Shown here in pieces: positions 11,034 to 34,870 of a stretch of 64,000 nt of DNA (the stretch's first letter is position 1; every line of letters begins with the position of its first letter). The DNA lies in the IMG/VR virus record IMGVR_UViG_3300031962_000002, positions 11,541-75,540 of that record, one strand, 5' to 3'. The notes beneath the pieces were generated by a model. The model worked only from the letters and a program-made list of their open reading frames with translations, searched no databases and had not been told where the DNA came from. The translations under genes and the position numbers were made by a program. The stretch comes from a virus.

Positions 11034-11563
11034 CATAAAGCCTTACATTTCTCTATCGCCTCTCGCGCTGACTCTTCGTGGTTTGGTTGATAGCCCATCC
11101 GATCGGACATCTGAAATAAGTCTTCGTGCGGCATGATCACCGTGTTCCATGGCTGATTGAGATGTGTGAAAATCCTGTCGGCCTCCCGGAGCAAGTTCTG
11201 ATCAACTCCGTATTTATCTATGTACTTGTCGAATACTTTCAGCATTCCTTTGTGGAAATAACAGCCCCAGCCGACCAGCGTACAACCCATGTCTTCGTAC
11301 TTCTTCTGAAATTCCTTGGTCATTGTATTGGTCAATCGGCCATCGTATTTTGAAAAAAGAACCTGGTAGTTCACGAAGCAATCATCGTCACACACAAAAA
11401 TAATGTCATTCTTTGCTTTCGCTGCGCACAAATAGCGATGATAAACAGACGGACACTTGGTATAAATTAAAATTTCATCGAAAAAATCTTGATCAAGTCT
11501 GTCAAGAATTATTTCAGGAAAATTATCTTCGCGAGTTATTAAAATGCAACTTATCTTTTCCAT
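11033..11563 (-). CDS. GT-A fold glycosyltransferase-like protein
   Basis: KISCILIT beta strand, AKNDIIFVCDDD DxD motif and LVGWG. Confidence 0.65.
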   Translation of the reverse strand: MEKISCILITREDNFPEIILDRLDQDFFDEILIYTKCPSVYHRYLCAAKAKNDIIFVCDDDCFVNYQVLFSKYDGRLTNTMTKEFQKKYEDMGCTLVGWGCYFHKGMLKVFDKYIDKYGVDQNLLREADRIFTHLNQPWNTVIMPHEDLFQMSDRMGYQPNHEESAREAIEKCKAL

Positions 11564-23000: not shown

Positions 23001-23339
23001 ATGGTTAGTCAAATAAATACATTCGCCATTGATCATTACGTGAACCCCATACATTCTACGATACCATTCACGCCTACGATAGCGTTCACACATCGCATCC
23101 ACATAGACGGTTTTCTTTTTCCCCCTCAAAACAAGATCCCGATCTTGTCCTTGCTTAAACTCTTCTTCCAGTGATCTTTCGATATACCATTTCGGAACAG
23201 ATTCACGTTTCCAGTATTGTTCTTCGATCGGTAATCCGTAATTGATAATTTGTGAAGTGTCCGTAGGTACGGGTGGAATCCAGCATTGAAAGCCCTCGCC
23301 GACTGTAATTTTTGTTCCGTTTTTTATAGGATAGAACAT
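20076..23339 (-). CDS. terL: Terminase large subunit, intein-containing
   Basis: YLTNHHYFYLQW, Walker A PRATGKT, Walker B LFEDEIGK and nuclease IGSDP. Confidence 0.92.
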   Translation of the reverse strand: MFYPIKNGTKITVGEGFQCWIPPVPTDTSQIINYGLPIEEQYWKRESVPKWYIERSLEEEFKQGQDRDLVLRGKKKTVYVDAMCERYRRREWYRRMYGVHVMINGECIYLTNHHYFYLQWCKFDHKENNGYPFYYHFSLDNFRIRQWCEENPHSMGYMIIGPRATGKTNEELACITNRATMYHNHRAALQSKHLEDDAKGVLIQAKMVPLFNALPKFFKPEFTHGTNTQSELVFRRRSVGGKESINVEYGADYELLSTIFAAGPGEKVLDSDTLSDLFEDEIGKCLAPETKVLLHNGHIKRADEIAISDKLMGPDSTIRNIQQIKLGFDQSFKIIPKKGWDEWSCSSGHKLVLKWGNHRTLNLNGKKFKKDDTVTITIDSYLKLNKTIKKHLLLFKVPVEYEFKKTWIDPYLLGLWLGDGNKCAMHITNTDPEVLNWLLSTYKGISRLVEPVNRTQSVRIKTFHGILKLYNLKKNKHIPKDYLINDRESRLKLLAGLIDSDGHATISGNRQNCEITQKLEVLAKGIHRLSTELGFYCSIAEKNATMKRKDGTIYSCKVYRLFLFGDLSDIPTKVKRKQFPKINKHHVNRRNPLRCGFSVQKNGFSQYVGFVLDGDKQHLLGDCQVTHNTNPKTVADVYVRHEVNLKCVFRNNRKIGLLRKTSTVEEMNEGGDECLKLRKDSNMKILDGNGFTTSKIHFHLISALDTDTSLVPYIDLKGVNHGIPCDKYGNVNRNIANIKIQNDFDAVKHDLKKLSGRMRKSPRNEAEAFIKDQSKSIFNVMLLTNRLEQIRNMPRLPYVKGNLYWVKEKFGPVWWQRDDHAGRFNWAWFPDEFSKIKDPENVKILNNVGKAWGYDNKGFSRQMLFPKNDHLFRIGSDPIKYSKTKDPRASKAAIHGYRLFDMSVDYGKEKKDWESSNFIFEYINRPEDPETSFEDTAMACIFLGCKLMPERNVPSLNDYFETNGLEKFLAYPRDFVGSDMEIQTSSDDAGWSTTPEVIDYYTRRIIAFINTRIGSMPFDNTIEDWLGFDPTNPTKSDATVSSGFTLAHAEKKVEREDDAPKHKIEDWFETYDNSGVNSQFVLDTTDN
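21456..22487 (-). mobile_element. Intein (344 aa) with LAGLIDADG homing endonuclease in TerL
   Basis: Starts CLAPETKV after DEIGK and ends VTHN before a +1 Thr. Internal LGLWLGDG and LAGLIDSDG motifs. Confidence 0.92.
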
Positions 23340-26300
23340 TATTCTACTGGGGTTAGTACTGGATGTGCTTTGTACTCTTTCGCATTCTTAATAATCCTTT
23401 CATAATAATTCATTGCCTCTTTCAAAGTGAATTTATCCTCCGAAGTGATCTGACGCCCGAAGTGTGTCTGAGGATGATAGTTCTCATCGTTAAGAATGTG
23501 GTATAGGTCAATCCACTCGGACACTGGCTCTCCTTTGATCGGCACTTTCTTCACGCCGGCGAAAGGATTTGAACTTCTCAACTTCTGTTTGATGTTGGCT
23601 GGATTGCCTCCTTTTTGAAGGAATTCTCCGAGCCATTTATCAGCATCATCATATTTTCCATAACGAAGTGCCAGCATGAATTTGTATTCAGCATCCTTCT
23701 GGTCGGCTCTGGTCGGATTTCCTGTCTCGCCCTTGCTCCCGCCAACATCACCGCCTTCGTAATTGTTAATAATTTTCTTGGCCGCATAATAACTCAATTG
23801 TTCGGTGTCAAATTCTCGGAGCAAAGAGTTATGAAATTTACGGCTCAAATAAGATTCACGTTTTGGTTTGTCACTCAAGGCATAGTTATACTCGTCACCA
23901 AGTGTCATCGACTTGAATAGATACTCCCATTTGTCGTTAATCGGAGTAGGATTAGTTATGTCAGGATAATAGGATTGACCAGAACCCAATTCAAATAGAG
24001 CCTTTGGTAACGGATTCACCAACTGCACTCCTTTGTTGAGCATGTTTGTTCCTATGCCTTTTGCTGTTTTGACAGTTTCTTTCACTGGCTGACCTCCTGT
24101 AAAAATCCTCTCCAGATCATCACCGATAGACCACAGCCCAAAGAAATCAATAAAGTCGTAGAAAGCTCCCTGAATCGGAACAGTAATAATGTGACCATCC
24201 CGAACGCCTACGATCAACTGAAGCCCCTTAATTTTAGTAGCCCGTAATCTTTTTTCATCATCCTCATCTCCACCATACAATCCAAAAGCAAACTTATTCC
24301 ATGCTTGGATTGCTGCTGTGAATAATCCCATCATCACATAGGCCCGTGCCATCTTGAAAGCAACCGAAGGAATACCGCGTGATACTGCCGATTTGATAAT
24401 ATCGCGTTGTGCCTGCGGCGAACTTGCATTTTTAAGCAAATTCAAATGAGTTTTCATGTTCACTTCAAACCAAGAATAGAAAGGCAATAATACTCGACGC
24501 ATTTGGTGCGCTCCTTGGCTAAGATTCATGTAGTCTCCAAACACATCACGGGCGAGTTTGGCATTCTTCTGCCGGACATCTGTAATTTTACGAATTTGAT
24601 CTGCTGGACTTGCCCAATAGAATGCTTCTCCTTTGGCTGTTTTTTCAACTGCCAGTTTATATGCGGCATATCGCAGAATGTTTTCACGGAATTGTACATA
24701 AGGAGAAACAGCCTTCATGTATTTGTCCCATAAATTGCCTGGAGCATCCTTGATTTTAATAGCCAGTTTTTTCATGCCTTCTTTTCCGAGAATGTTTTCA
24801 ATGCTTGGTGAATCACTTTGTAATGCTTCAGCCCACTTCTCTTTGCTGATATCTGCAAGTTCTGAAATCTGGAACCCAGAATTGATCACATCCCCTCTCA
24901 TTGCCTCCAAAAGTTGTGGTGTTGTTTCTCCGTACTTCAAGTATCTCCAAAGTTCGCCAGTGGCTTCTTTGGCATACTTGGCTATTTTTGGTTCAACTTG
25001 GATAAGCCGATCAAGATCACTACCGAAGTTATTCAAATTGTATCGAAGCATTCGAGTAGGAGAAAGAATCATCAATTGCTTCCATGCTGATGTAATCTTT
25101 GTAGCCAGTCCTGTCGGCGCACTGACTGTCTCATTTTTTGCCAATTCTTCAAGTTGTTCGGCAAGTTGAGTCGGTATCATGTACTGCTTACGTTTTGGGC
25201 CTACCATTAATCCACTTTTAAGGCCGCTGATCAATTCGTCAACAATTGCCAAGGCATCACTCAAGCCAGCATTGTCATTGTCTTCAGCTTGGTCTATGGC
25301 CCGATCAATGGTCTTTTGACTCACTGTTTTTCCCCAGAATAACCTATTATCTTCACTCACGCGGTAGAAAGTGAATCCTTCTGGCAGATTATCAAATAGA
25401 TAATTACGTTTCAATGCACGTTTGCCGTCTATATACTGTTTGACCTCTTTGCTGTCTTCTCCGAATTGCTTTTCAATTGATGCCAATTGAGCATCGAAAT
25501 GTTTCTTAAATTCAGCGGAAATAGCGTTTAATTGCTTCTCAAAAGGTGCCACAAGGTCTTTAAGGATACGCTGTTTCTCCATCTCGTACATACCTTCAGA
25601 AACCACCTTGAATTCAGTCTCAATGAAATTGGTGCTGTAATCCAATCCTCGCGTTCCTTTCCTGCGCTTCTGGAAGTCACGCTTTTTATCAGCTATATCT
25701 TTTCCGAAGAGAATGCTCTTGTGCTCGTTTTCTGCATGGTATTCCAACACCCGACGATGGTAGTAACTTTCAATGTCATTTTCATCCAATAGACCAGATT
25801 CGATCAGTTGCCTCTTGAATTCTGCCATGAATTCTTCACGCATGTCGAATGCACGTTGAATGCGTGGATCGCCCTTCATAAAAATGTCGTACTTCGTCAG
25901 TGCCCTATCAACTTGATCGGCATCATTAAATCCGAATGGCAGTTTTCCGTCAGGGCCAACCATGTTCAATCCCTTTTTGATGGATTCCTGCATGTCGGCC
26001 AATATAATACGCATGGAAAAAATCTTGTACTGTTGCGGAGTCATTCCTTCAACCATTGTTTTTACGTATTGGTTGGCATTGCCTTTCGCCCATGGATAGA
26101 GTGTTTCAAATTCCCGTAGGATATTTGCCTCACGGGGCCATGTCTTGGCATCAAGAAATTTGAAGTGTTGAGTTGCCCAATTTTTAACGCCTGTGATGGC
26201 TTCTCCCCACGTTTTTTCCATGTTCTCGGGAGCGGGCGCTGCGGCCTTATCTATGCGTTCATCTACTTCCTGATCACCAATTTTGACTTCTTCATTCAAT

Positions 26301-29300
26301 TGGCGCTCCAATTCTTCTCTGGTCTTGCCGGATTGCGCGATAATGGCCAATAACGCATTATTGCTGGGTGCTTTTTTAACCTTCCCAATTGGCTTAATTG
26401 GTAGGCCGGTAGTCATCGCCCCAGAAAATCCCTCGAAGTTCTCTTCGGCGTTTTTTTTTGAATTTTCGGCAATGATGTCCTCTAATGAATTTTTAGGTTC
26501 CTCTGGCAATTTTTCTTCTGATTGCTTTTCAGATTCAGCCTTCAATTCTGCTGATAGTTTATTGCGCTTCTCTTCTGTCTCGGCCAATTCTTTGATATCC
26601 TCTTCTTTGGCTGCCACTTCTTTAACTCCTTCGGCACTTTTGAGATTTGATAAAGCGTCTTTGTACTCCTTTTCAGATTGTGAAATGTCAATCCGAATAT
26701 CGCGAATGGTGGCCTGAACAGCAATCCGCAAGGTAAGAGGATTGATTGCCTGTGTTCGCTTGATAATGGCGACTGGGGAAATGTTCTTGTTGGTCACAGT
26801 GTCGTCGCCAAGATCAACACGCGCATCTTTGTAGCCTTCGTTTTGTCTGGCATAAACATCTATTCCTCCAATTGTACCAATTTGTCTACGGTATGTGCTG
26901 TGCATGGCGTCATTCGCCCGCTCGGACAATGCTTGATAAAACTCTTGGCGTTGTTTTGGATTGGCGGTGTCGTATTCTTGTCCATTCACTTCCCCTTTGA
27001 ATTTGGCAACAACGGTAGTGACCTTTTTAACTTTGCCTTTCTCATCTTTCGATTCCTCTTCGACTTCCTCAAGTTTTATGTTTTTAACTATTCGATCGGC
27101 CAAATCATTAACAATTCTCCGTTCTTCGCGGGTATAGTCCACGAACTTTTTCGCCTCATCAATTCTGCGGGAGCGCATGATATTTGCCCGCTTCGTAGAT
27201 TCAACACGGTTTCTCAACTTTTCTGCTTTTGACTTCAACTTCTCCAAGTCAAGTATGCGGGTGTCTCCACTGATAGCGGCTGCAAATTCACTCATGGTCA
27301 TACTCTCTCCGTCCTCGAAGTCCATCTCACGCAATCCTTTGGCCCCAGCCCGGAAGGAATCAATCCCTGATTGTTTGCGAGATAATAGGTCAAACCGATA
27401 GGAGTCTATGGTTTCTTGGGTGCCATAATATTTAATCGCTACTTCCTTGTATGAGTTACCCCGGCGAATACCACGGCCATTCCTTTGTTCAAGGTCTGAC
27501 GGCCTCCAACCAACATCTACATGGTGCATGGCGGCAATTTTGCTTTGCACATTGACCCCTGTACCCATCTTTTGAGTGGACCCGAGCAATACACGTACTT
27601 GTCCTTTGTTGACTTTATCAAAAAGTTCTTCTTTCAGTTTTTTGGTAGGAGCATCGTGGATGAAAGCAATCTCTTTTTCGGGAATGCCTTTTGATACAAG
27701 AAGGTTTTTCAGTGCGTCATAAACATTGAAAGAGTTTACGTTATTTGCTTCCTCGATGATAAAATCAGCTTCTGATGGATCAACCTCCAAAATGTCGATC
27801 AATTTTTGCTTTATCGCTGACTGTTCAGTCTGTTTCCAGATTGTATCAGTGTTCGGGATTTCATTCAATACCTCTTCGCCATACATTTCAATCACCTGAT
27901 CGTGGACGCGATCACCTAACTTGGCATTTTTGTTCTTAGGGGTACCCATATCGGCAAAGACCAACTGTGTACCTTTCTTTTCGGCTTCTTCATCATAGAT
28001 TTTCTTAACCTCATCGGCTACTTTAAATAGTTTCCCGCCATCGGCTTTCTGGTGAGGAAATACCAATCTCGGGTCAATGCTGGCTTTGGTACCTAATGTG
28101 GTGAGGACAAGTCCTAACGCCTTTTCTGCATCTCCTTGTGGATTGATGCCTATTGATTTTAGCGGAGCGATGCTGGCCGACTTAGAGGCATCGTAGATGG
28201 CCTTGGTTATCATTCTCACTGTCTCTGACTGCGGAATTAGGATAATTTCTGGTTTGCCTCCTTTTATTTCTGGCTTTTCAAGTTTTAAGTTATGCTCTCC
28301 GCGCACATCTGAAATCTCTGAATACAGACTTGCCAATTCTGGCACGTTCACAAACTTAGTTAATCGAGTTTTGTTCTTGATCACGCCAGCCACATTCTTC
28401 TCCATCTGCGAGGTGATCAGCGCGAAGTTCTTTAAGAACTGATCCAGACTCACCATTTGCAGTTTCTTCAAAAGGCTTGGCCGTAGGTACTGGAAAATAT
28501 TGTAAACCTCAACCAATGAGTTTGAAATCGGGGTTCCGGATGCAAAGACAATACCCTTGTCTCCGCCGTGCATGTTTTGGAGATACCTGGTAACCATTTT
28601 CAAATTCGACGCTCTCTTTGAACCTTTCGCGGTGCCCATACCGGACACATTGCGCAACTTGGTCACAAAGTTTAGGTTCTTCATCTGCTGGGATTCATCC
28701 ACAAAGAGCATATCCACACCCATGGTGCCAAAGTCTGTCCGACTGGCTCCAACACCCTTATCTTGCAATTTTTCCAGTCTGGTTTTGAGGTTGGCAACGC
28801 GCTCTTCCAATGCCTTGGCTTGTTTCACCGCCCATTTGTCGCTCTTATCTGCGTTCATTTCCGACATGGCCGACCGCAATTCTTCAATCTCTCCTTCGAT
28901 ATACTGCGATTCAAATTCTGCCGGCAACGGGATTGTCCCAAGATTCTCATGGGTGATTATCACAAGATCCCAATCATTATTTGCAATCTGCGCGAACAAC
29001 CTTTGACGATTTGCAGCGGAGAAGTCTTTATCTGTTGGTGCCAGTATCTTCTTTTCAGGGTATTGGGCCTTGATTTGATCCATCATGCCGGGCACCACAG
29101 ATTTCATTGTAGTTATCAGTGGCTTGTTAACCAGCCCTATTTCTTTCATCTTGATGGCCCCCACGGACATAACCAGCGACTTCCCGGCTCCGACCTGGTG
29201 ATCAACCATCCCGCCCATTTTCTGCACGATCATCATTATTGCGTCCTTCTGGTGAGGATTCAGGTCATAACCTTGCATCCCTGGGAAGGTCAGGTGATCG

Positions 29301-32300
29301 CCATTGAATTTCTTAATGACAATGCCATTGAAATACTCATTGTATAGTTTTGACAGTTCGTTACCTGTCTTTTCATCGGCCTCAATAAGCCCGGCAAATT
29401 CGTTCTGGAGTCTTTCAGCCTTATCACGAACATCCTGCGTGAGTTTTGGAAGTGGTGTTTTGGTACCATCTGAATGAGTGACATAAAAGTCGGGCACATT
29501 TTTAGTGATAGCGGCTTTCACGACCACATCAACGCCACGGCGATGACCGTCTGGGTCGAAGGCTTCATAGTCGCCTCCCAGAACGCGGGAATTCACTTCG
29601 TAATCATCCGTGGCTTTATTGTACCGAACCGTCACTCGTCCTTCTCCAAATACTGAATCAAGGAATTGTTGTGTATATTTTAACGGAATCCACGATGCCC
29701 CCAACTGGAAAGTGATTTGTTCTTTGGGAATAGGCATCGGAATGATCTTTTTGAGCGCCTCAACATTGCGTTCATATTTCTGATCAACCTTAACCCATTG
29801 TTCGGCCTGCTTTAGCTTCTCAATGACGTTGCCTGATAAATACTCGTTCTTTTCAACGATCTCGTCAGGCGTCTCAAAAATCTCATCTTTTATTCTTTTG
29901 ATTGTTGCCTCTTCTGATTTCTCGCCGAGTACCTTCTGAATGAAAGGCATGTTGAGTTTTCCATAGTTGTTGATGGAAAACCCTATCGCTTCCTGTGGAA
30001 CTTCGGTCTTTGTAAATTCATTCAGTTCTCTCTTGATAGGTTTTTCAACAACATCTGAAAATGTTCCATCCGATTTTTCAAGGGCTGACACCGCATAAAA
30101 ATCGGGATCAGAAACCAGTATGCGATTGATCGCTTTGTTGCCTTTTGCAAGTGAGTTGAGGTTTGATGGTTTGATTATCCTGATAAAATTCTTTAGCGCA
30201 ATCCGAAGGCGTGAACGCTCTTCTTTTGTGTCCTCATTGAGTTTGTCTTTTGCCAAAACATCAAAGTAGATTTTCTTAGTATCAACAAATGCCTTCAAAA
30301 TAGGCATGTCCTTCTCGGCGGGCATCACGCCTTTGCCAATCTCTTCGATTGAGTATTTGCCTGTATCCCGGTCGAAGTCGCGCACGAAGTAATATTTCCC
30401 TTCATTTTCAACAATGCCACCAGATACCATCCGGCCCAGCGGTGTGATTTGAAGAGTCTGAAGGGTGTCCTTTTCTTGCGCCTGACGTTCGAGTATGGGT
30501 GCCTTTTTGGCCATCTCGGCAAGTTTTTCGCCTACCTTGGTTGGATCAAATTCACCTACCAAAGTGTATCCTCTTTCAGCATTGTAAAGTCCACCGGCCT
30601 TGAATTCTGTGCCAAAGATGTTTTCCGGGTTCTTTTTGAAATACTCATTGTACTGGATATCCTGATTGGGCAAAGCGGGGTTGTTGTGCTTTACATTTTG
30701 GGTTACAATGTTCGAAATCTGGTCGACGCCGGGAACTGATGGTGTAATCTTCTTCCTCAAAAGGATGATATCAGTCACCACCTGGGTACCGGCATCGGCA
30801 TTGAATGCTGAAGAAGAAAGCCTAACGGCGCCTACAAAATCGGTTTCCTTGTTGATTAGGTCCCTGGTGCCTTGGTTTCCCGGCGTATCGAGGATATTTG
30901 ATGTGGTCAAAATCGCCACATATCCACCCGGCCGCACCGAATCAATGGCTTTGGCAAAGAAGTAGGTATGCAGTTTATCTTGGCTCTGTTTCCACAGACC
31001 TCCGCGCTTGTCCAATTGAGGATCGTACACATGAGCTGACCCAAAAGGAATATTGGAAACGAACAAATCATAGTAATTTGACGGAATTGAGGCGCTTTGC
31101 AGCGGGCTATTAATAATTGATGCCTTCGGATATAGGTATTTGCTGATCAAAGAGCTTACGACATCCATGTCGACGCCTTTAACCCGGCTATTGCCGGACA
31201 TCGCCGCTGGCATCCCGCCTATAAACCGACCAGTTCCTACTGAACCTTCAAGGATTTTGCCCCCTTCAAATCCTCCAGCGCCAAGCCCTTCATAGATTGC
31301 CCGAATAACAGGCAAGGAGGTGTAATAGGCATTGCGTGTTGAACTTTTGGCTGTCTCCAATGGCTTTGTGCCAGTCTTCTCCCCAATGTCCTCCAAGAGG
31401 CTTTTGAGCTTTTGGGCATCATCAAAGAATTCGAGGTTTGATTTCGTCCAGTCTTTGCCGAGCTTGTTGTCAGAAAGCAGAATCTCGCCCAGCGGGCCTA
31501 ACCCATTGTATTTGGCGAGTGCTTCCTTTTGTTCATCTGTGGCAAAACTGTCCGGATTGTCCAAAAGATTATTAATCACCTCCAACGCCGCGATGTTGTC
31601 AGTGTATGCCTGCCGCTTGGAGAATGTCTTGTTCTTAGTCCTTTCCCAGTTCTCTGGGTAGACAAAGTTGTGCTGGATCTCGGAGTCCTTTAATTCAGGC
31701 CGTAGGCGTCCCTCATTGCCTCCTGAAGGCTCTCCTGCGGGCTCATTCCCGTTTTCTCGTACATCTCCTGGTTGTGATTCACCAGGCTGACTAACGTTTC
31801 CATTTGCTTCTTCGCCTCCAGTTCCTTTTCCTTGTTCAGTTCCTCCCTTCTCTTCTCCGGCATTGCGTTCAGCATTGACGCTACTGGTCCGTGAACCTCC
31901 TTCACCAACCACTGTTCCAGTTTTGTTAACATTTTCTTTAGGTGTTAATTTTTCAAGTTCTCTTTCGTTGACTACCTTTTCGATAGTCTCTTTCGGAATA
32001 TCTTGGACGTTTTCAAATTTCTCACCAGTCCGCTTCTCCACTGAATTCAACAAGTGAGAAGGATTTTCAAATCCTTTCTTTTTGGCTATCTCGTCCGCAT
32101 GAGATTTAGCCTCTTCCTTAGTCAGAAATTCCCCTTCAGGCGTGGCGACATGATAGCCGCTGCCGGGAATTATGTGCACTGGTTGAGACGAAACAATGTT
32201 GCCTTTCAGAACCGCACGGACTCCGTTCTTGTCCTCCCCTACTTTATCCCCTTCCAGGTTGGTCCCGAGAACTTTAAAGCCCTTGCCAAAAGACTCTTCT

Positions 32301-34870
32301 TGTTTGGCTTCTTCGGGTTTAGGATTAGATATTTCACTCCCTTGAGTTGACGTTTGAGTATTTTCATTGGTTATTTTATCTTTAAAAAATTGCGCTATAT
32401 TTTTGTCTGAAATTTCATAGCCTGAATCAGTTTCAGTTAGATAATTAGTTAACTCACTGCCAGCCTTAAGTCTTATACTAACCGCTCTTTTGTCTTGTAT
32501 AGGTTTTCCTTCTTTGTCATAAAACTGGACTATTCTGCTGCCATCATCTGTTTTTATTTCTTGACGAATACCATTTTCAAAATCAGTCTTTGTGGCTGTA
32601 GCATTTCCTATTTTTAATTCCTGTTTATTAATTTCTTCTCCAAGATCAGGAACATCAATTGTGCTTGTTGCTATCCCGTGTTTTTCTGATTCTTTCTTCC
32701 ACTTTATTTTTTCCTCGGTATTGTCTCCGAGTGGTGCTTGTTGCTTTTCTTCTTCAGTCCGATTTTCTTGGGTAGTTTCATTCCCTTGGACGCTTGGTTC
32801 CACTCGTCCACGTTCACTCCCTGGTTCTCCAACTGCTTCTTGTGCATGTTGAAGTACGCTGCTTGTGCTTGGCTCTTGTATGGCATTTTGTTCCCCCTCC
32901 TTGGTTTTATTTTTTAGTTTGTAAACAAATGCTTTTTCTCCGTTTTCTAAAATGATGGTTGAACGTTCGTATTTCTCTTCCCAATTATCAAGTTTTTTTA
33001 ACTGTTCTGGCGTAACCTCCAAAACTTCCCCTCTTAAATTCTTCCCTTCATCATGTTTAATGTCAGGGAAAGATTTAATGTCAAATTTTTCATCGTTTGG
33101 AGCAATTGCCATTTCTGTCTTCACATGTTCACCTATTGCTTCTTTTCTTGTCTTTGGATCTTTTAAAGTGCCGTAAACAAATACTTTTTGTTTCCCCGTT
33201 TCTGGATTAACTGGAACTACTTCTGATGATGGCTTAGTCTCGAGAATTTTATCTTGCCGTACTTTTTCCTCCCGATTGCTGCCGCTACTGCTCCCGGGTT
33301 GTTCACTCCCGGTTCGTGGCTCAATTTGTTCTTCAGTTTCTGAAAGCGGCCTCCCCCGCCCAGTTTCATTGACTTGTGGATTGTTTGTGATTTCATCTTT
33401 TTGTGATTTTGATTCGTTTGTTATTTTCTCTTGGTTGTTTTTAAAATTGCCAACGATATGACCGCCTCCAATAATACCAATGGAACCATAAAATCCCTGT
33501 AATCCTTCCTCTCTCGATCTATTCCAATCAATGTCTTTTTCCCAATCAATGTCATCAACTTTCTTTCCACTTGCTAAAAGTGCCCCTATTTGTGAATTGG
33601 TGCCTTGCATGAACTCTGTTGCATATTCAGTTAATGGTTCTGCTAAAGCCTTAACGCCTTTTTTCCACATTGCCTCTGGGGCATGTTTCAATAACTCTTC
33701 TGTGGCTTTCTTTTTGATTATATTCTTAACACCTACACTAAATGCTTTAGTAGTTGTGAATATTGATGATCCTAGATCAAGAACTCCATTTATTAACCCT
33801 ACAACGTGAGCAACTTCTTTGGCTGGCTTGTCAAGATCCTTTTCAATAACTTCTTTTTCTGTTATTCCATAATTCTTAGCTATCGCTGAAACAGCCTCAT
33901 CATAGGCACCTCCTTTTTCCATAAGATAACTTGATGCCCCGAGCGTAGCTACTGAGGTAGGAATATAACCTAACCCATTACCGATGGCTCCCCCAATATA
34001 GGATGCTATTCCAGATGAACCTTGCTTGGTGGCTTCTTCCCAATCTTTTGGTATTGCCTTCAAACCAGAATAATCACCCAGAAGTTTACTGGATTCCTCC
34101 TGAATTTTTTTTGCCTCTTCTAAGTGTGATATTTTTTTATTTATTGCCGCCGCTGTAAATGATGGCCCTACTTTAATAATCTTACCCTCTTTTGTAATGA
34201 CATCCCCACCTTTGCGCCATCCAGGATATTCCTCATCTGCTATTTTTTCAGCATATTTTCTTCGCGTCTCATCACTGGCAAATTCATTTAACACTGCATA
34301 TTTTTCAGGATGAGTCCGGATAAGTTCATCTATGAAATCCGTTTTCTGATTGATAGCCTCATTTTGTTGAATGTTTGCAGGAACATCATGCTTAAGTACC
34401 GAAATAAACTTTCTTCCTAAATCAAATAGTCCTCTGAATAGATTTTCTGTCGCACCTCCTCCATATTCCTTCAATGCTATATCATGAATGTTCTCTTCTG
34501 GAGTAGGCGTTAAAGTTACTTCTGGTGTTGGTGGTTGAGGTTTTGTTGGATCAATCTGCCCGCTTAATAATTGTTCTTCTGGCGAAGGACTTGGTGGCGT
34601 GATTGCCAACTCTGAACCAGTTGATAAAGGCTTTGTAACATCCAATTGACCAGGTAACGAAAAACTGAAAGTATCGTCTTTTTTTTTTACTTTGGATTCA
34701 AAGTCTGAATATTCTCCTAATTCAAATTCTTTACCAACTCCATTGTAAAATGCCTGTCTTTTAGTTGGATCTTGCAGTTTTTTAGTGAACTCATCTAGGG
34801 AACCAATGTCATATTTTTTTGACACGGCTTCATGCAACACCTTTATTTTATCGTCAGTAGGATCAATCAT
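23339..34870 (-). CDS. Giant polyvalent virion-ejected protein (3843 aa): gamma-glutamylcyclotransferase-like domain, DarB-like N6-adenine methyltransferase, SNF2/SF2 helicase and LPD38-like C-terminus
   Basis: VFVYGTLK...LDNWEEKY (GGCT). ILEGSVGTG and VSNIPFG (MTase motifs I and IV). HQVGAGKS, VDESQ, SGTPISN, GTGVNVQ and QRNGRGIR (helicase). Confidence 0.85.
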   Translation of the reverse strand: MIDPTDDKIKVLHEAVSKKYDIGSLDEFTKKLQDPTKRQAFYNGVGKEFELGEYSDFESKVKKKDDTFSFSLPGQLDVTKPLSTGSELAITPPSPSPEEQLLSGQIDPTKPQPPTPEVTLTPTPEENIHDIALKEYGGGATENLFRGLFDLGRKFISVLKHDVPANIQQNEAINQKTDFIDELIRTHPEKYAVLNEFASDETRRKYAEKIADEEYPGWRKGGDVITKEGKIIKVGPSFTAAAINKKISHLEEAKKIQEESSKLLGDYSGLKAIPKDWEEATKQGSSGIASYIGGAIGNGLGYIPTSVATLGASSYLMEKGGAYDEAVSAIAKNYGITEKEVIEKDLDKPAKEVAHVVGLINGVLDLGSSIFTTTKAFSVGVKNIIKKKATEELLKHAPEAMWKKGVKALAEPLTEYATEFMQGTNSQIGALLASGKKVDDIDWEKDIDWNRSREEGLQGFYGSIGIIGGGHIVGNFKNNQEKITNESKSQKDEITNNPQVNETGRGRPLSETEEQIEPRTGSEQPGSSSGSNREEKVRQDKILETKPSSEVVPVNPETGKQKVFVYGTLKDPKTRKEAIGEHVKTEMAIAPNDEKFDIKSFPDIKHDEGKNLRGEVLEVTPEQLKKLDNWEEKYERSTIILENGEKAFVYKLKNKTKEGEQNAIQEPSTSSVLQHAQEAVGEPGSERGRVEPSVQGNETTQENRTEEEKQQAPLGDNTEEKIKWKKESEKHGIATSTIDVPDLGEEINKQELKIGNATATKTDFENGIRQEIKTDDGSRIVQFYDKEGKPIQDKRAVSIRLKAGSELTNYLTETDSGYEISDKNIAQFFKDKITNENTQTSTQGSEISNPKPEEAKQEESFGKGFKVLGTNLEGDKVGEDKNGVRAVLKGNIVSSQPVHIIPGSGYHVATPEGEFLTKEEAKSHADEIAKKKGFENPSHLLNSVEKRTGEKFENVQDIPKETIEKVVNERELEKLTPKENVNKTGTVVGEGGSRTSSVNAERNAGEEKGGTEQGKGTGGEEANGNVSQPGESQPGDVRENGNEPAGEPSGGNEGRLRPELKDSEIQHNFVYPENWERTKNKTFSKRQAYTDNIAALEVINNLLDNPDSFATDEQKEALAKYNGLGPLGEILLSDNKLGKDWTKSNLEFFDDAQKLKSLLEDIGEKTGTKPLETAKSSTRNAYYTSLPVIRAIYEGLGAGGFEGGKILEGSVGTGRFIGGMPAAMSGNSRVKGVDMDVVSSLISKYLYPKASIINSPLQSASIPSNYYDLFVSNIPFGSAHVYDPQLDKRGGLWKQSQDKLHTYFFAKAIDSVRPGGYVAILTTSNILDTPGNQGTRDLINKETDFVGAVRLSSSAFNADAGTQVVTDIILLRKKITPSVPGVDQISNIVTQNVKHNNPALPNQDIQYNEYFKKNPENIFGTEFKAGGLYNAERGYTLVGEFDPTKVGEKLAEMAKKAPILERQAQEKDTLQTLQITPLGRMVSGGIVENEGKYYFVRDFDRDTGKYSIEEIGKGVMPAEKDMPILKAFVDTKKIYFDVLAKDKLNEDTKEERSRLRIALKNFIRIIKPSNLNSLAKGNKAINRILVSDPDFYAVSALEKSDGTFSDVVEKPIKRELNEFTKTEVPQEAIGFSINNYGKLNMPFIQKVLGEKSEEATIKRIKDEIFETPDEIVEKNEYLSGNVIEKLKQAEQWVKVDQKYERNVEALKKIIPMPIPKEQITFQLGASWIPLKYTQQFLDSVFGEGRVTVRYNKATDDYEVNSRVLGGDYEAFDPDGHRRGVDVVVKAAITKNVPDFYVTHSDGTKTPLPKLTQDVRDKAERLQNEFAGLIEADEKTGNELSKLYNEYFNGIVIKKFNGDHLTFPGMQGYDLNPHQKDAIMMIVQKMGGMVDHQVGAGKSLVMSVGAIKMKEIGLVNKPLITTMKSVVPGMMDQIKAQYPEKKILAPTDKDFSAANRQRLFAQIANNDWDLVIITHENLGTIPLPAEFESQYIEGEIEELRSAMSEMNADKSDKWAVKQAKALEERVANLKTRLEKLQDKGVGASRTDFGTMGVDMLFVDESQQMKNLNFVTKLRNVSGMGTAKGSKRASNLKMVTRYLQNMHGGDKGIVFASGTPISNSLVEVYNIFQYLRPSLLKKLQMVSLDQFLKNFALITSQMEKNVAGVIKNKTRLTKFVNVPELASLYSEISDVRGEHNLKLEKPEIKGGKPEIILIPQSETVRMITKAIYDASKSASIAPLKSIGINPQGDAEKALGLVLTTLGTKASIDPRLVFPHQKADGGKLFKVADEVKKIYDEEAEKKGTQLVFADMGTPKNKNAKLGDRVHDQVIEMYGEEVLNEIPNTDTIWKQTEQSAIKQKLIDILEVDPSEADFIIEEANNVNSFNVYDALKNLLVSKGIPEKEIAFIHDAPTKKLKEELFDKVNKGQVRVLLGSTQKMGTGVNVQSKIAAMHHVDVGWRPSDLEQRNGRGIRRGNSYKEVAIKYYGTQETIDSYRFDLLSRKQSGIDSFRAGAKGLREMDFEDGESMTMSEFAAAISGDTRILDLEKLKSKAEKLRNRVESTKRANIMRSRRIDEAKKFVDYTREERRIVNDLADRIVKNIKLEEVEEESKDEKGKVKKVTTVVAKFKGEVNGQEYDTANPKQRQEFYQALSERANDAMHSTYRRQIGTIGGIDVYARQNEGYKDARVDLGDDTVTNKNISPVAIIKRTQAINPLTLRIAVQATIRDIRIDISQSEKEYKDALSNLKSAEGVKEVAAKEEDIKELAETEEKRNKLSAELKAESEKQSEEKLPEEPKNSLEDIIAENSKKNAEENFEGFSGAMTTGLPIKPIGKVKKAPSNNALLAIIAQSGKTREELERQLNEEVKIGDQEVDERIDKAAAPAPENMEKTWGEAITGVKNWATQHFKFLDAKTWPREANILREFETLYPWAKGNANQYVKTMVEGMTPQQYKIFSMRIILADMQESIKKGLNMVGPDGKLPFGFNDADQVDRALTKYDIFMKGDPRIQRAFDMREEFMAEFKRQLIESGLLDENDIESYYHRRVLEYHAENEHKSILFGKDIADKKRDFQKRRKGTRGLDYSTNFIETEFKVVSEGMYEMEKQRILKDLVAPFEKQLNAISAEFKKHFDAQLASIEKQFGEDSKEVKQYIDGKRALKRNYLFDNLPEGFTFYRVSEDNRLFWGKTVSQKTIDRAIDQAEDNDNAGLSDALAIVDELISGLKSGLMVGPKRKQYMIPTQLAEQLEELAKNETVSAPTGLATKITSAWKQLMILSPTRMLRYNLNNFGSDLDRLIQVEPKIAKYAKEATGELWRYLKYGETTPQLLEAMRGDVINSGFQISELADISKEKWAEALQSDSPSIENILGKEGMKKLAIKIKDAPGNLWDKYMKAVSPYVQFRENILRYAAYKLAVEKTAKGEAFYWASPADQIRKITDVRQKNAKLARDVFGDYMNLSQGAHQMRRVLLPFYSWFEVNMKTHLNLLKNASSPQAQRDIIKSAVSRGIPSVAFKMARAYVMMGLFTAAIQAWNKFAFGLYGGDEDDEKRLRATKIKGLQLIVGVRDGHIITVPIQGAFYDFIDFFGLWSIGDDLERIFTGGQPVKETVKTAKGIGTNMLNKGVQLVNPLPKALFELGSGQSYYPDITNPTPINDKWEYLFKSMTLGDEYNYALSDKPKRESYLSRKFHNSLLREFDTEQLSYYAAKKIINNYEGGDVGGSKGETGNPTRADQKDAEYKFMLALRYGKYDDADKWLGEFLQKGGNPANIKQKLRSSNPFAGVKKVPIKGEPVSEWIDLYHILNDENYHPQTHFGRQITSEDKFTLKEAMNYYERIIKNAKEYKAHPVLTPVE
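31690..31932 (-). CDS. Candidate nested gene (+1 frame) inside the giant gene, helical 80-aa protein
   Basis: Protein-like sequence (…EKTGMSPQESLQEAMRDAYGLN) overlying a low-complexity linker of the main frame; A-rich leader. Confidence 0.45.
   Translation of the reverse strand: MLTKLEQWLVKEVHGPVASMLNAMPEKRREELNKEKELEAKKQMETLVSLVNHNQEMYEKTGMSPQESLQEAMRDAYGLN
32704..32886 (-). CDS. Candidate nested gene (+1 frame), small basic MPYKS-type phage protein
   Basis: MPYKSQAQAAYF...VDEWNQASKGMKLPKK resembles stand-alone small phage proteins. Preceded by AAGGAGG. Confidence 0.6.
   Translation of the reverse strand: MPYKSQAQAAYFNMHKKQLENQGVNVDEWNQASKGMKLPKKIGLKKKSNKHHSETIPRKK
33217..33369 (-). CDS. 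Candidate nested gene (+1 frame), small basic protein with IGRKKYG motif
   Basis: Translated by hand: MKLGGGGRFQKLKNKLSHEPGVNNPGAVAAAIGRKKYGKIKFSRLSHHQK. Confidence 0.6.
   Translation of the reverse strand: MKLGGGGRFQKLKNKLSHEPGVNNPGAVAAAIGRKKYGKIKFSRLSHHQK

Follow-up and report, generated by a model that had tools for sequence, protein, structure and literature searches.

Small conserved genes probably nested out of frame in the linkers of a giant phage polyvalent-protein gene

We analysed a stretch of 64,000 nucleotides (nt) of viral DNA, hereafter the window, which spans positions 11,541 to 75,540 of the IMG/VR virus record IMGVR_UViG_3300031962_000002 and forms the larger part of that record (75.5 kb, ~94% complete). 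Its minus strand carries a giant gene for a polyvalent protein of 3843 amino acids (aa), in whose inter-domain linkers at least two, and probably three, small conserved proteins appear to be encoded one base out of frame. We consider it likely that the region is dual-coding in this sense, with two nested functional genes (pep1 and pep2), a third one that is restricted to a narrow lineage (pep4) and a fourth frame (pep3) that is noise; the evidence consists of homology, recurrence of the nesting, substitution patterns and the conservation of starts and stops.

Layout of the nested frames

An earlier note on this DNA, drawn from the letters alone, had described four ATG-initiated frames that lie in the same +1 frame of the giant open reading frame (ORF), each over a low-complexity linker, and had proposed that the polyvalent protein grew by reading through whole neighbouring genes. 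Coordinates and frame arithmetic confirm that this layout exists: for each of the four ORFs (34870 - start) mod 3 equals 1, start and stop are intact, the ORF lies wholly inside the outer coding sequence, and Pfam domains flank it in frame 0 (Table 1). The AAGGAGG reported upstream of pep2 is present as well. Two details needed correction. The end of pep1 stands, but the start had been placed at an inner ATG, and the upstream ATG at 33396, which retains the family-conserved 'KSMKLGGGG', gives the longer product; and while pep1, pep2 and pep4 do overlie linkers, pep3 does so only in part.

ORFs of this size in the +1 frame alone are not beyond chance. Their common frame had been counted in their favour, but +1 is generically the more open alternative: stretches of at least 35 codons without a stop number 50 in +1 and 30 in the other alternative frame across the window's three largest genes, and 575 versus 281 across 68 giant ORFs, and the folded domains of the window's giant gene hold further ATG-initiated +1 ORFs, 54-69 aa long. 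One could therefore read all four as chance ORFs in a T-poor, A-rich linker with few stops in any frame, as the three stretches of the giant gene with less than 12% T coincide with pep1, pep2 and pep4, pep3 has no homologue, and pep4 has none beyond a single relative. Where pep1, pep2 and pep4 do exceed chance is in their homology and in the conservation specific to their frame. The first two match hundreds of independently called small proteins at E-values of 1e-16 to 1e-18, chance does not explain the codon-position pattern described below, and the T-depletion is better read as a consequence of two frames being kept open, so that we regard the chance reading as very improbable.

The pep2 family and its nested copies

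In a search of 5.8 billion proteins, pep2 retrieved 208 small proteins of 44-105 aa, with E-values down to 6.7e-18 and up to 91% identity (to P0121). Family members share a 41-residue core, followed by a variable Lys/Arg-rich tail to a total of 45-65 aa, and are recognised by the signature MPYKSxAQAAYFNxHKKxLExQGVNVDEWNxASKGxKLPKK plus a Lys-rich tail; all 17 invariant columns of the family alignment (A2), including M1-P2-Y3-K4-S5, are kept in the window copy. Together with the 182 small homologues of pep1 (see below), this bears out the earlier impression that both peptides resemble small basic proteins that occur as stand-alone phage genes; the searches made for pep3 and pep4 (see below) returned no free-standing homologue.

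Relatives of pep2 are encoded in 340 IMG/VR stretches, 80 of which were fetched for an analysis of context (L-numbers denote fetched viral or metagenome stretches). The gene is free-standing in 53 of these 80 loci and nested in 24, and in a few it forms the N-terminal domain of a larger protein. The nested copies, 22 of them unique in sequence, lie in same-strand host ORFs of 427 to more than 4000 aa, always at an offset of +1, and each of them retains the ATG and the 41-aa core and stops at the length usual for the family. No other family recurs in this way: when alternative-frame ORFs of at least 35 codons were clustered over the 68 giants, pep2 came up in 24 loci and any other cluster in at most 5, all from near-identical genomes. 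Beyond the pep2 stretch, the hosts are mostly unrelated to the window's giant, and the nested gene is flanked on either side by domains typical of polyvalent proteins. Read in one frame, the order is ddrB-ParB, pep2, LPD1 and sigma-70 regions in L004, pep2, GGACT and a zeta-toxin-like region in L017, and a histidine phosphatase (His_Phos_1) followed by pep2 in L045, while the host in L066 carries a methylase.

The L004 ORF (L004:3-12131, plus strand) is open over the whole 12-kb locus, encoding more than 4043 aa with pep2 nested at about residue 1999, and its sigma-70 regions 2 and 4 lie in the same frame as ddrB-ParB and LPD1; a sigma factor in a polyvalent protein is unusual. In L008 (2204-3883, plus strand) and L031 (6001-8358, plus strand), pep2 is the in-frame N-terminal domain of proteins of 560 and 786 aa, respectively, the former with a HELGH motif and a weak match to Zn_peptidase_2 below the Pfam cut-off.

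Neither Pfam nor PHROGs gave a meaningful match for any of the four peptides, and Pfam gave none for 51 family members from the pep1 (A1) and pep2 (A2) alignments. In the ESM Atlas, pep2 falls among clusters of viral hypothetical proteins, and the nearest named cluster, at a similarity of 0.88, is DUF3008, a weak lead. DUF3008 (PF11450) shares with pep2 its small size, its viral distribution and an N-terminal K-S/A-x-A-Q-like motif, but its Pfam hidden Markov model matches neither pep2 at E <= 10 nor any of 25 family members at E <= 1. tblastn of pep1, pep2 and two family members against GenBank phages returned chance matches or none (one was antisense, in CcrColossus), and no cultured phage carrying either family was found among them.

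Substitution patterns in nested pep2

We compared the 22 unique nested pep2 sequences with 40 unique free-standing ones, using uncorrected ratios of non-synonymous to synonymous differences (pN/pS). At the DNA level the nested sequences are only ~74% identical to one another. Their entropies at the first, second and third pep2 codon positions are 0.59, 0.36 and 0.84 (0.61, 0.44 and 1.30 in free-standing copies), which is a normal coding signature in the pep2 frame and an inverted one in the giant frame. Mean pairwise amino-acid identity in the pep2 frame is 0.71 for nested and 0.73 for free-standing copies, and 0.49 and 0.36, respectively, in the giant frame. The comparison of selection by frame, which the earlier note had put forward as a check, likewise gives a purifying pattern in the pep2 frame (pN/pS 0.28 nested, 0.21 free-standing) and none in the giant frame (1.89 and 1.91). 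Judged by these substitutions, the nested copies evolve as pep2 genes, with the giant frame just kept open.

All 22 nested sequences are free of stops in the giant frame, as against none of the 40 free-standing ones, which have 5.85 there on average, although the zero is partly definitional, because only copies with an open giant frame are called nested; the independent evidence lies in the domain content of the giants and in the substitution pattern. Synonymous diversity in particular is reduced (pS 0.65 in nested and 0.91 in free-standing copies), as is expected only if the second frame is selected to stay open: the one visible constraint that the giant frame adds is that third positions of pep2 avoid T before codons starting with AA, AG or GA, which keeps the giant frame free of stops and makes these positions less diverse. 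Such avoidance also accounts for the T-poor composition at pep1, pep2 and pep4 in the window.

This diversity also bears on the possibility that the giant ORF is not one protein at all, that is, that the separate domains and the small genes are real and frame 0 is not read through the latter. A giant ORF, its stop and a pep2 gene starting 6-23 nt later is indeed a common arrangement, and the shuffling of modules is a known source of variation among polyvalent genes. However, ~5.9 giant-frame stops in free-standing pep2 face none in nested pep2 over 24 loci, frame 0 stays open over 11.5 kb in the window and over more than 12 kb in L004, with recognised domains on both sides, and the loss of third-position diversity in nested copies would be left unaccounted for. 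We take this possibility to be extremely improbable.

pep1, pep4 and pep3

The pep1 family comprises small basic proteins of 50-100 aa with the signature KLGGGGRF..GVxNPGAVAAAIGRKKYG. Its 182 small members retrieved with the window copy reach E-values of 4.5e-16 and are 60-79% identical to it (79% in P0001), and the window copy has all 9 invariant and 10 near-invariant columns of the family alignment (A1). Of the pep1 relatives encoded in 504 viral stretches, most are free-standing and some are in-frame domains, and nested copies, all at +1 and all with their ATG, are found in L060/L167, L168, L194 and L197. In two of these loci (L060 and L168) a single linker holds both nested genes, pep2 and pep1, next to each other. 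Compared with one another, the copies of the window, L060 and L168 have identities of 0.69-0.78 when read in the pep1 frame and of 0.46-0.60 when read in the giant frame, values that come from few sequences. As 3 of 30 free-standing pep1 genes are stop-free in the giant frame by chance, recoding is less telling for pep1 than for pep2.

In the related contigs L194 and L197, pep1 is nested near the end of a giant ORF (1338 and 1887 aa, respectively) and the long open frame that follows (1373 and 880 aa) has pep2 ~50 codons from its start, which gives the impression of a transitional layout between abutting and fully nested genes.

For pep4, neither the search of 5.8 billion proteins nor a profile scan of viral contigs found a free-standing homologue. 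Its only relative (L163:4041-4280) is a +1 ORF in the equivalent linker, with the same end point before the conserved NFVYPENW start of the methylase. Over the same nucleotides, the two are 42% identical (64% positives) in the +1 frame and 31% identical (47% positives) in the main frame, with alignment scores of 125 and 66 and z-values against shuffles of 13.6 and 4.1, respectively. Substitutions are distributed over the three codon positions as 34/26/38 in the +1 frame and as 37/34/26 in the main frame. As a control, +1 ORFs within the methylase domain are 37-42% identical, which follows from the 69% identity of the main frame there. We lean towards the view that pep4 is a real nested gene of a very narrow, lineage-restricted family.

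By the same measures pep3 is probably a chance ORF: nothing matched it in Pfam, PHROGs, 1.84 billion cluster representatives or 245 fetched loci, the 62-kb contig that contains the pep4 relative lacks the pep3 region, and its length is within the range of chance +1 ORFs. The earlier suggestion of dual coding for all four ORFs is thus upheld by protein-level selection on the frames of pep1, pep2 and pep4 and not for pep3, which is without homologue or relative; in relatives of the other three, the +1 frame is intact rather than interrupted by stops (pep2 in 24 loci, pep1 in four further contigs and pep4 in one).

Intact frames might also persist in relics, small genes that were swallowed by gene fusion, whose expression has ceased and whose intact look reflects nothing more than a recent fusion. 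The free-standing homologues make a swallowed gene a natural origin, the 3 of 30 free-standing pep1 genes already open in the giant frame would have required little recoding, and no RNA run is listed for the window sequence. Yet a frame that had lost its function would decay as fast as a weakly constrained linker does, whereas the 22 nested pep2 sequences, for all their divergence at the DNA level, always keep ATG, core and stop at a pN/pS of 0.28, and the same pattern is seen for pep1 in four lineages and for pep4. We consider relics improbable, and retained function of the nested genes the better reading.

Initiation and expression

Synthesis of the small proteins would start internally on the giant gene's late mRNA, with the ATG of each nested gene as initiation site; that the nested genes are translated at all is suggested by the selection on them. 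No Bacteroidota-type promoter motif (TAnnTTTG) was found upstream of the nested genes, in the 5' third of the giant gene, which makes the giant gene's own mRNA the likely template. In the window, a stop closes the +1 frame 4-9 codons upstream of each nested ATG, and the ATGs are conserved at the exact N-termini of the pep1 and pep2 families, so that independent initiation is favoured over frameshifting.

Programmed +1 frameshifting would instead yield truncated giants with pep1 or pep2 as C-terminal domain and no free small proteins. In its favour, pep1 or pep2 is found naturally fused in frame to larger proteins (L008, L031, L099, L111, L143 and L213), and an AAGGAGG resembling a Shine-Dalgarno (SD) sequence lies shortly upstream of pep2. 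Against this stand the upstream closure of the frame, the retention of the ATG in 22 of 22 nested pep2 sequences and in all nested pep1 copies, and the short upstream interval, in which no slippery motif was noted; most nested copies, moreover, have no SD-like motif. Frameshifting is in our view extremely improbable, and we retain internal initiation.

The heptamer AAGGAGG also precedes nested pep2 in L004, L017 and L066. The genome of the window is SD-poor, with a 4-mer core before 4 of 52 ORFs of at least 120 aa and A-rich upstream regions, which makes the role of the motif at pep2 uncertain. Near-absence of SD motifs is typical of phages of Bacteroidota-like hosts, and the strong AAGGAGG at pep2 stands out against it.

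The giant gene and its surroundings

The giant gene lies in a virion module in which tail and virion genes, the giant gene, terL and the portal gene follow one another (Table 1). Frame 0 is uninterrupted from 34870 to 23339 on the minus strand, over ~11.5 kb, and its stop overlaps the start of terL in an ATGA-type junction at 23339. All three stop codons serve as stops in the window, which indicates the standard genetic code.

Table 1. Features of the window discussed in the text
Feature	Coordinates	Strand	Description	Evidence
Giant polyvalent-protein gene	23339..34870	-	Outer frame 0, 3843 aa	ORF, Pfam domains, methylase alignment
pep1	33217..33396	-	Nested +1 gene (probable), 59 aa (alternative start 33369, 50 aa), over linker residues ~492-552	Homology, nesting
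GGACT / gamma-glutamyl cyclotransferase-like domain	32891..33184	-	Frame 0, aa 563-660	Pfam PF06094, E 1.3e-12
AAGGAGG	32896..32902	-	Shine-Dalgarno-like heptamer, reads K-E-G in the giant frame	9 nt upstream of pep2 ATG
pep2	32704..32886	-	Nested +1 gene (probable), 60 aa, over linker residues ~662-723	Family homology, nesting, selection
pep3	32239..32367	-	+1 ORF, 42 aa	Unsupported
pep4	31690..31932	-	Nested +1 ORF, 80 aa, helical, over G/E/N-rich linker just before the methylase	One pairwise comparison
TerL	23339-20076	-		PHROG match
Portal	20069-17637		Same module as giant gene and TerL	Gene context

Within one frame, the giant protein matches the Pfam families GGACT and Helicase_C (aa 2389-2471) and, weakly, SNF2; its residues 999-1430 align with the Eco57I-type methylase region of L066, and an NIPFG-type motif is present in the translation. 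The GGACT domain sits between pep1, which ends 11 codons before it, and pep2, which starts 2 codons after it. By architecture, with several unrelated conflict-type domains in a phage virion module, the gene appears to be that of a polyvalent protein, which would comprise an N-terminal domain, GGACT, further domains, an N6-methylase and an SNF2 helicase. LPD markers did not match the window's giant in Pfam at E <= 0.01. L004, which likewise hosts a nested pep2, carries LPD1.

The sole relative of the pep4/methylase part is one 62-kb contig found in viral and metagenome collections (L163, L165, L166 and L247), and this contig lacks pep1 and pep2. blastn of the region against phages gave nothing, and a soil metagenome DNA run, probably from the source sample itself, is the only sequencing run holding the window sequence, with no RNA run listed.

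The TerL ORF encodes 1087 aa, of which PHROG TerL matches span only residues ~282-1078, so that an N-terminal extension of ~280 aa is not explained by them. No separate gene for a small terminase is evident between the giant gene and terL.

Origin and possible function

How could such an arrangement arise? Neighbouring modules would fuse through a small gene whose giant-frame stops had first been removed by synonymous changes, and several inter-domain linkers would then be out-of-frame readings of complete and still functional small genes; selection would act on the nested amino-acid sequence, the giant frame needing only to stay stop-free and hydrophilic or disordered. In line with this, an ORF of at least 800 aa ends 6-23 nt before the start of 17 of the 53 free-standing pep2 genes, and parts of the ORFs that precede them in this way are homologous to segments flanking nested pep2 in other phages, which suggests that pep2 habitually sits at junctions of giant-gene modules. 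The growth of the polyvalent protein by reading through its neighbours, as the earlier note had it, is a possible route that fits these observations. In the poorly resolved pep2 tree of 42 columns, the nested state is clustered (10 changes, versus 18.2 in shuffles), so that a single origin of nesting may be compatible with the data. The disordered, compositionally biased reading is that of the giant and the ordered, conserved one that of pep2, and by the usual polarity the pep2 frame looks like the older of the two and the linker reading like the younger.

As to function, pep1 and pep2 are both small, basic and helical, lie in the virion/packaging module of the window and have free-standing copies close before terL in L092 and L041. 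An AlphaFold2 model of pep1 has three helices (pLDDT 77), for which Foldseek found nothing significant in the PDB and only uncharacterised proteins of uncultured phages in BFVD; the model of pep2 has a pLDDT of 68, profile searches of the PDB with the families gave only spurious matches (designed helical bundles, LexA), and a predicted complex of pep2 with pep1 (score 0.01) gave no answer and carries no weight either way. In L213 (3909-5978, plus strand), a pep1-type domain, recognised by two partial matches, shares a protein of 689 aa with a Caudovirus prohead serine protease (Peptidase_S78, 36 bits), and the major head protein is the next gene; this fusion hints at pep1 as a component of the head interior.

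A metagenomic protein of 102 aa (P0084) joins a pep2-like N-terminal half (MPYVSEAQRRFFH...) to a pep1 C-terminal half, and pep2-like and pep1 genes are adjacent in L009 (4304-4646), L060 and L100 (6001-6290). Fusion and adjacency suggest that the two families work together. As a working hypothesis, and with low confidence, we propose that these two small basic proteins associate with the head and accompany the packaged giant protein as its partners, in a nucleic-acid-binding or chaperone-like role.

Besides the partly definitional stop count, several points weigh against the reading of the region as dual-coding or against parts of it. The support for pep4 is a single pairwise comparison, and nested pep1 rests on about four lineages. 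The 42-column pep2 tree cannot give the direction of evolution. Since the genome barely uses SD sites, the AAGGAGG before pep2 may be inherited baggage that travelled with the module. No fold or family match indicates a function, and the contexts of pep1 are varied, with a primase as neighbour in 23 loci.

In these 23 loci, found among L083-L162, free-standing pep1 adjoins a DNA primase or primase-helicase (e.g., L107:6188-7999, minus strand), and the pep1 family as a whole has no single conserved neighbourhood.

Overlapping genes are textbook material for tiny viruses, are treated as rare oddities in large double-stranded DNA phages and are forbidden by gene callers. The present case is recurrent and bears a signature of selection, with two widespread, unnamed families embedded out of frame in the linkers of giant anti-defence or ejection proteins of more than 20 phage lineages, and it implies that real genes are systematically overlooked when giant phage genes are annotated. 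Rather than designed spacers, the disordered linkers of polyvalent proteins may be by-products of other genes, which suggests a mechanism of growth, and the tight coupling to the giants, with pep2 either nested in them or starting 6-23 nt after them, may point to a functional partnership. A broader proposal would be that polyvalent linkers are routinely built by reading through functional small genes, as a general route of domain accretion, and that the nested proteins are obligate co-expressed partners of the packaged or injected giant, for instance head-internal DNA-binding or chaperone-like proteins. We offer it tentatively, as something short of an even chance; if it were true, giant genes of phages and conjugative elements would hide a substantial unannotated small proteome.

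Comparison with known systems

Same-strand nested genes are already known, from lambda Rz1 in Rz, comS in srfAB and phiX174. The kind is thus not new, and what is undescribed, as far as we found, is nesting in polyvalent proteins and the two families themselves; we found no paper on nested genes in polyvalent proteins or on the pep1 and pep2 families, nor relevant work on DUF3008.

A close parallel is the embedded architecture of the Rz/Rz1 spanin genes of phage lambda, which Summer and co-workers reportedly treated in 2007. There, too, one tailed-phage gene contains the whole of a smaller gene, read from the same strand at +1, Rz and Rz1 are both functional, and related phages have embedded, overlapped and separate forms, much as pep2 is nested, abutting or free-standing. 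In contrast to Rz/Rz1, the outer gene is here an 11.5-kb multidomain gene, the overlap is confined to disordered linkers, several unrelated genes are nested, free-standing homologues number in the hundreds, and there is no functional link to lysis.

D'Souza, Nakano and Zuber are said to have described in 1994 how comS lies out of frame inside srfAB of Bacillus subtilis. This functional gene of ~46 codons likewise occupies another frame of a giant multidomain gene, but it is a single, lineage-specific case in a bacterial nonribosomal peptide synthetase operon, whereas pep1 and pep2 belong to widespread phage families and nesting occurs in many unrelated architectures.

The outer gene has its counterparts in the polyvalent proteins of phages and conjugative elements, such as the DarB-type methylase-helicases of P1 (Iyer et al., 2017; PMC5512222). 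The window's giant resembles them in its GGACT, methylase and SNF2 helicase domains within a virion module, and its relatives carry LPD1, ddrB-ParB, zeta-toxin-like and phosphatase domains. A term search of that paper found no mention of overlapping genes, frameshifts or linkers, and the nested small genes are the layer added here.

Finally, overprinting in small viruses, with B in A, E in D and K of phiX174 as examples (PMC8227390), also draws two proteins from one DNA, one frame being ordered and conserved and the other disordered and biased. In the classical cases, however, it is the small frame that is novel, whereas here the small protein looks older and the linker of the giant derived, and the setting is a 75-kb double-stranded DNA phage without obvious need for compression.

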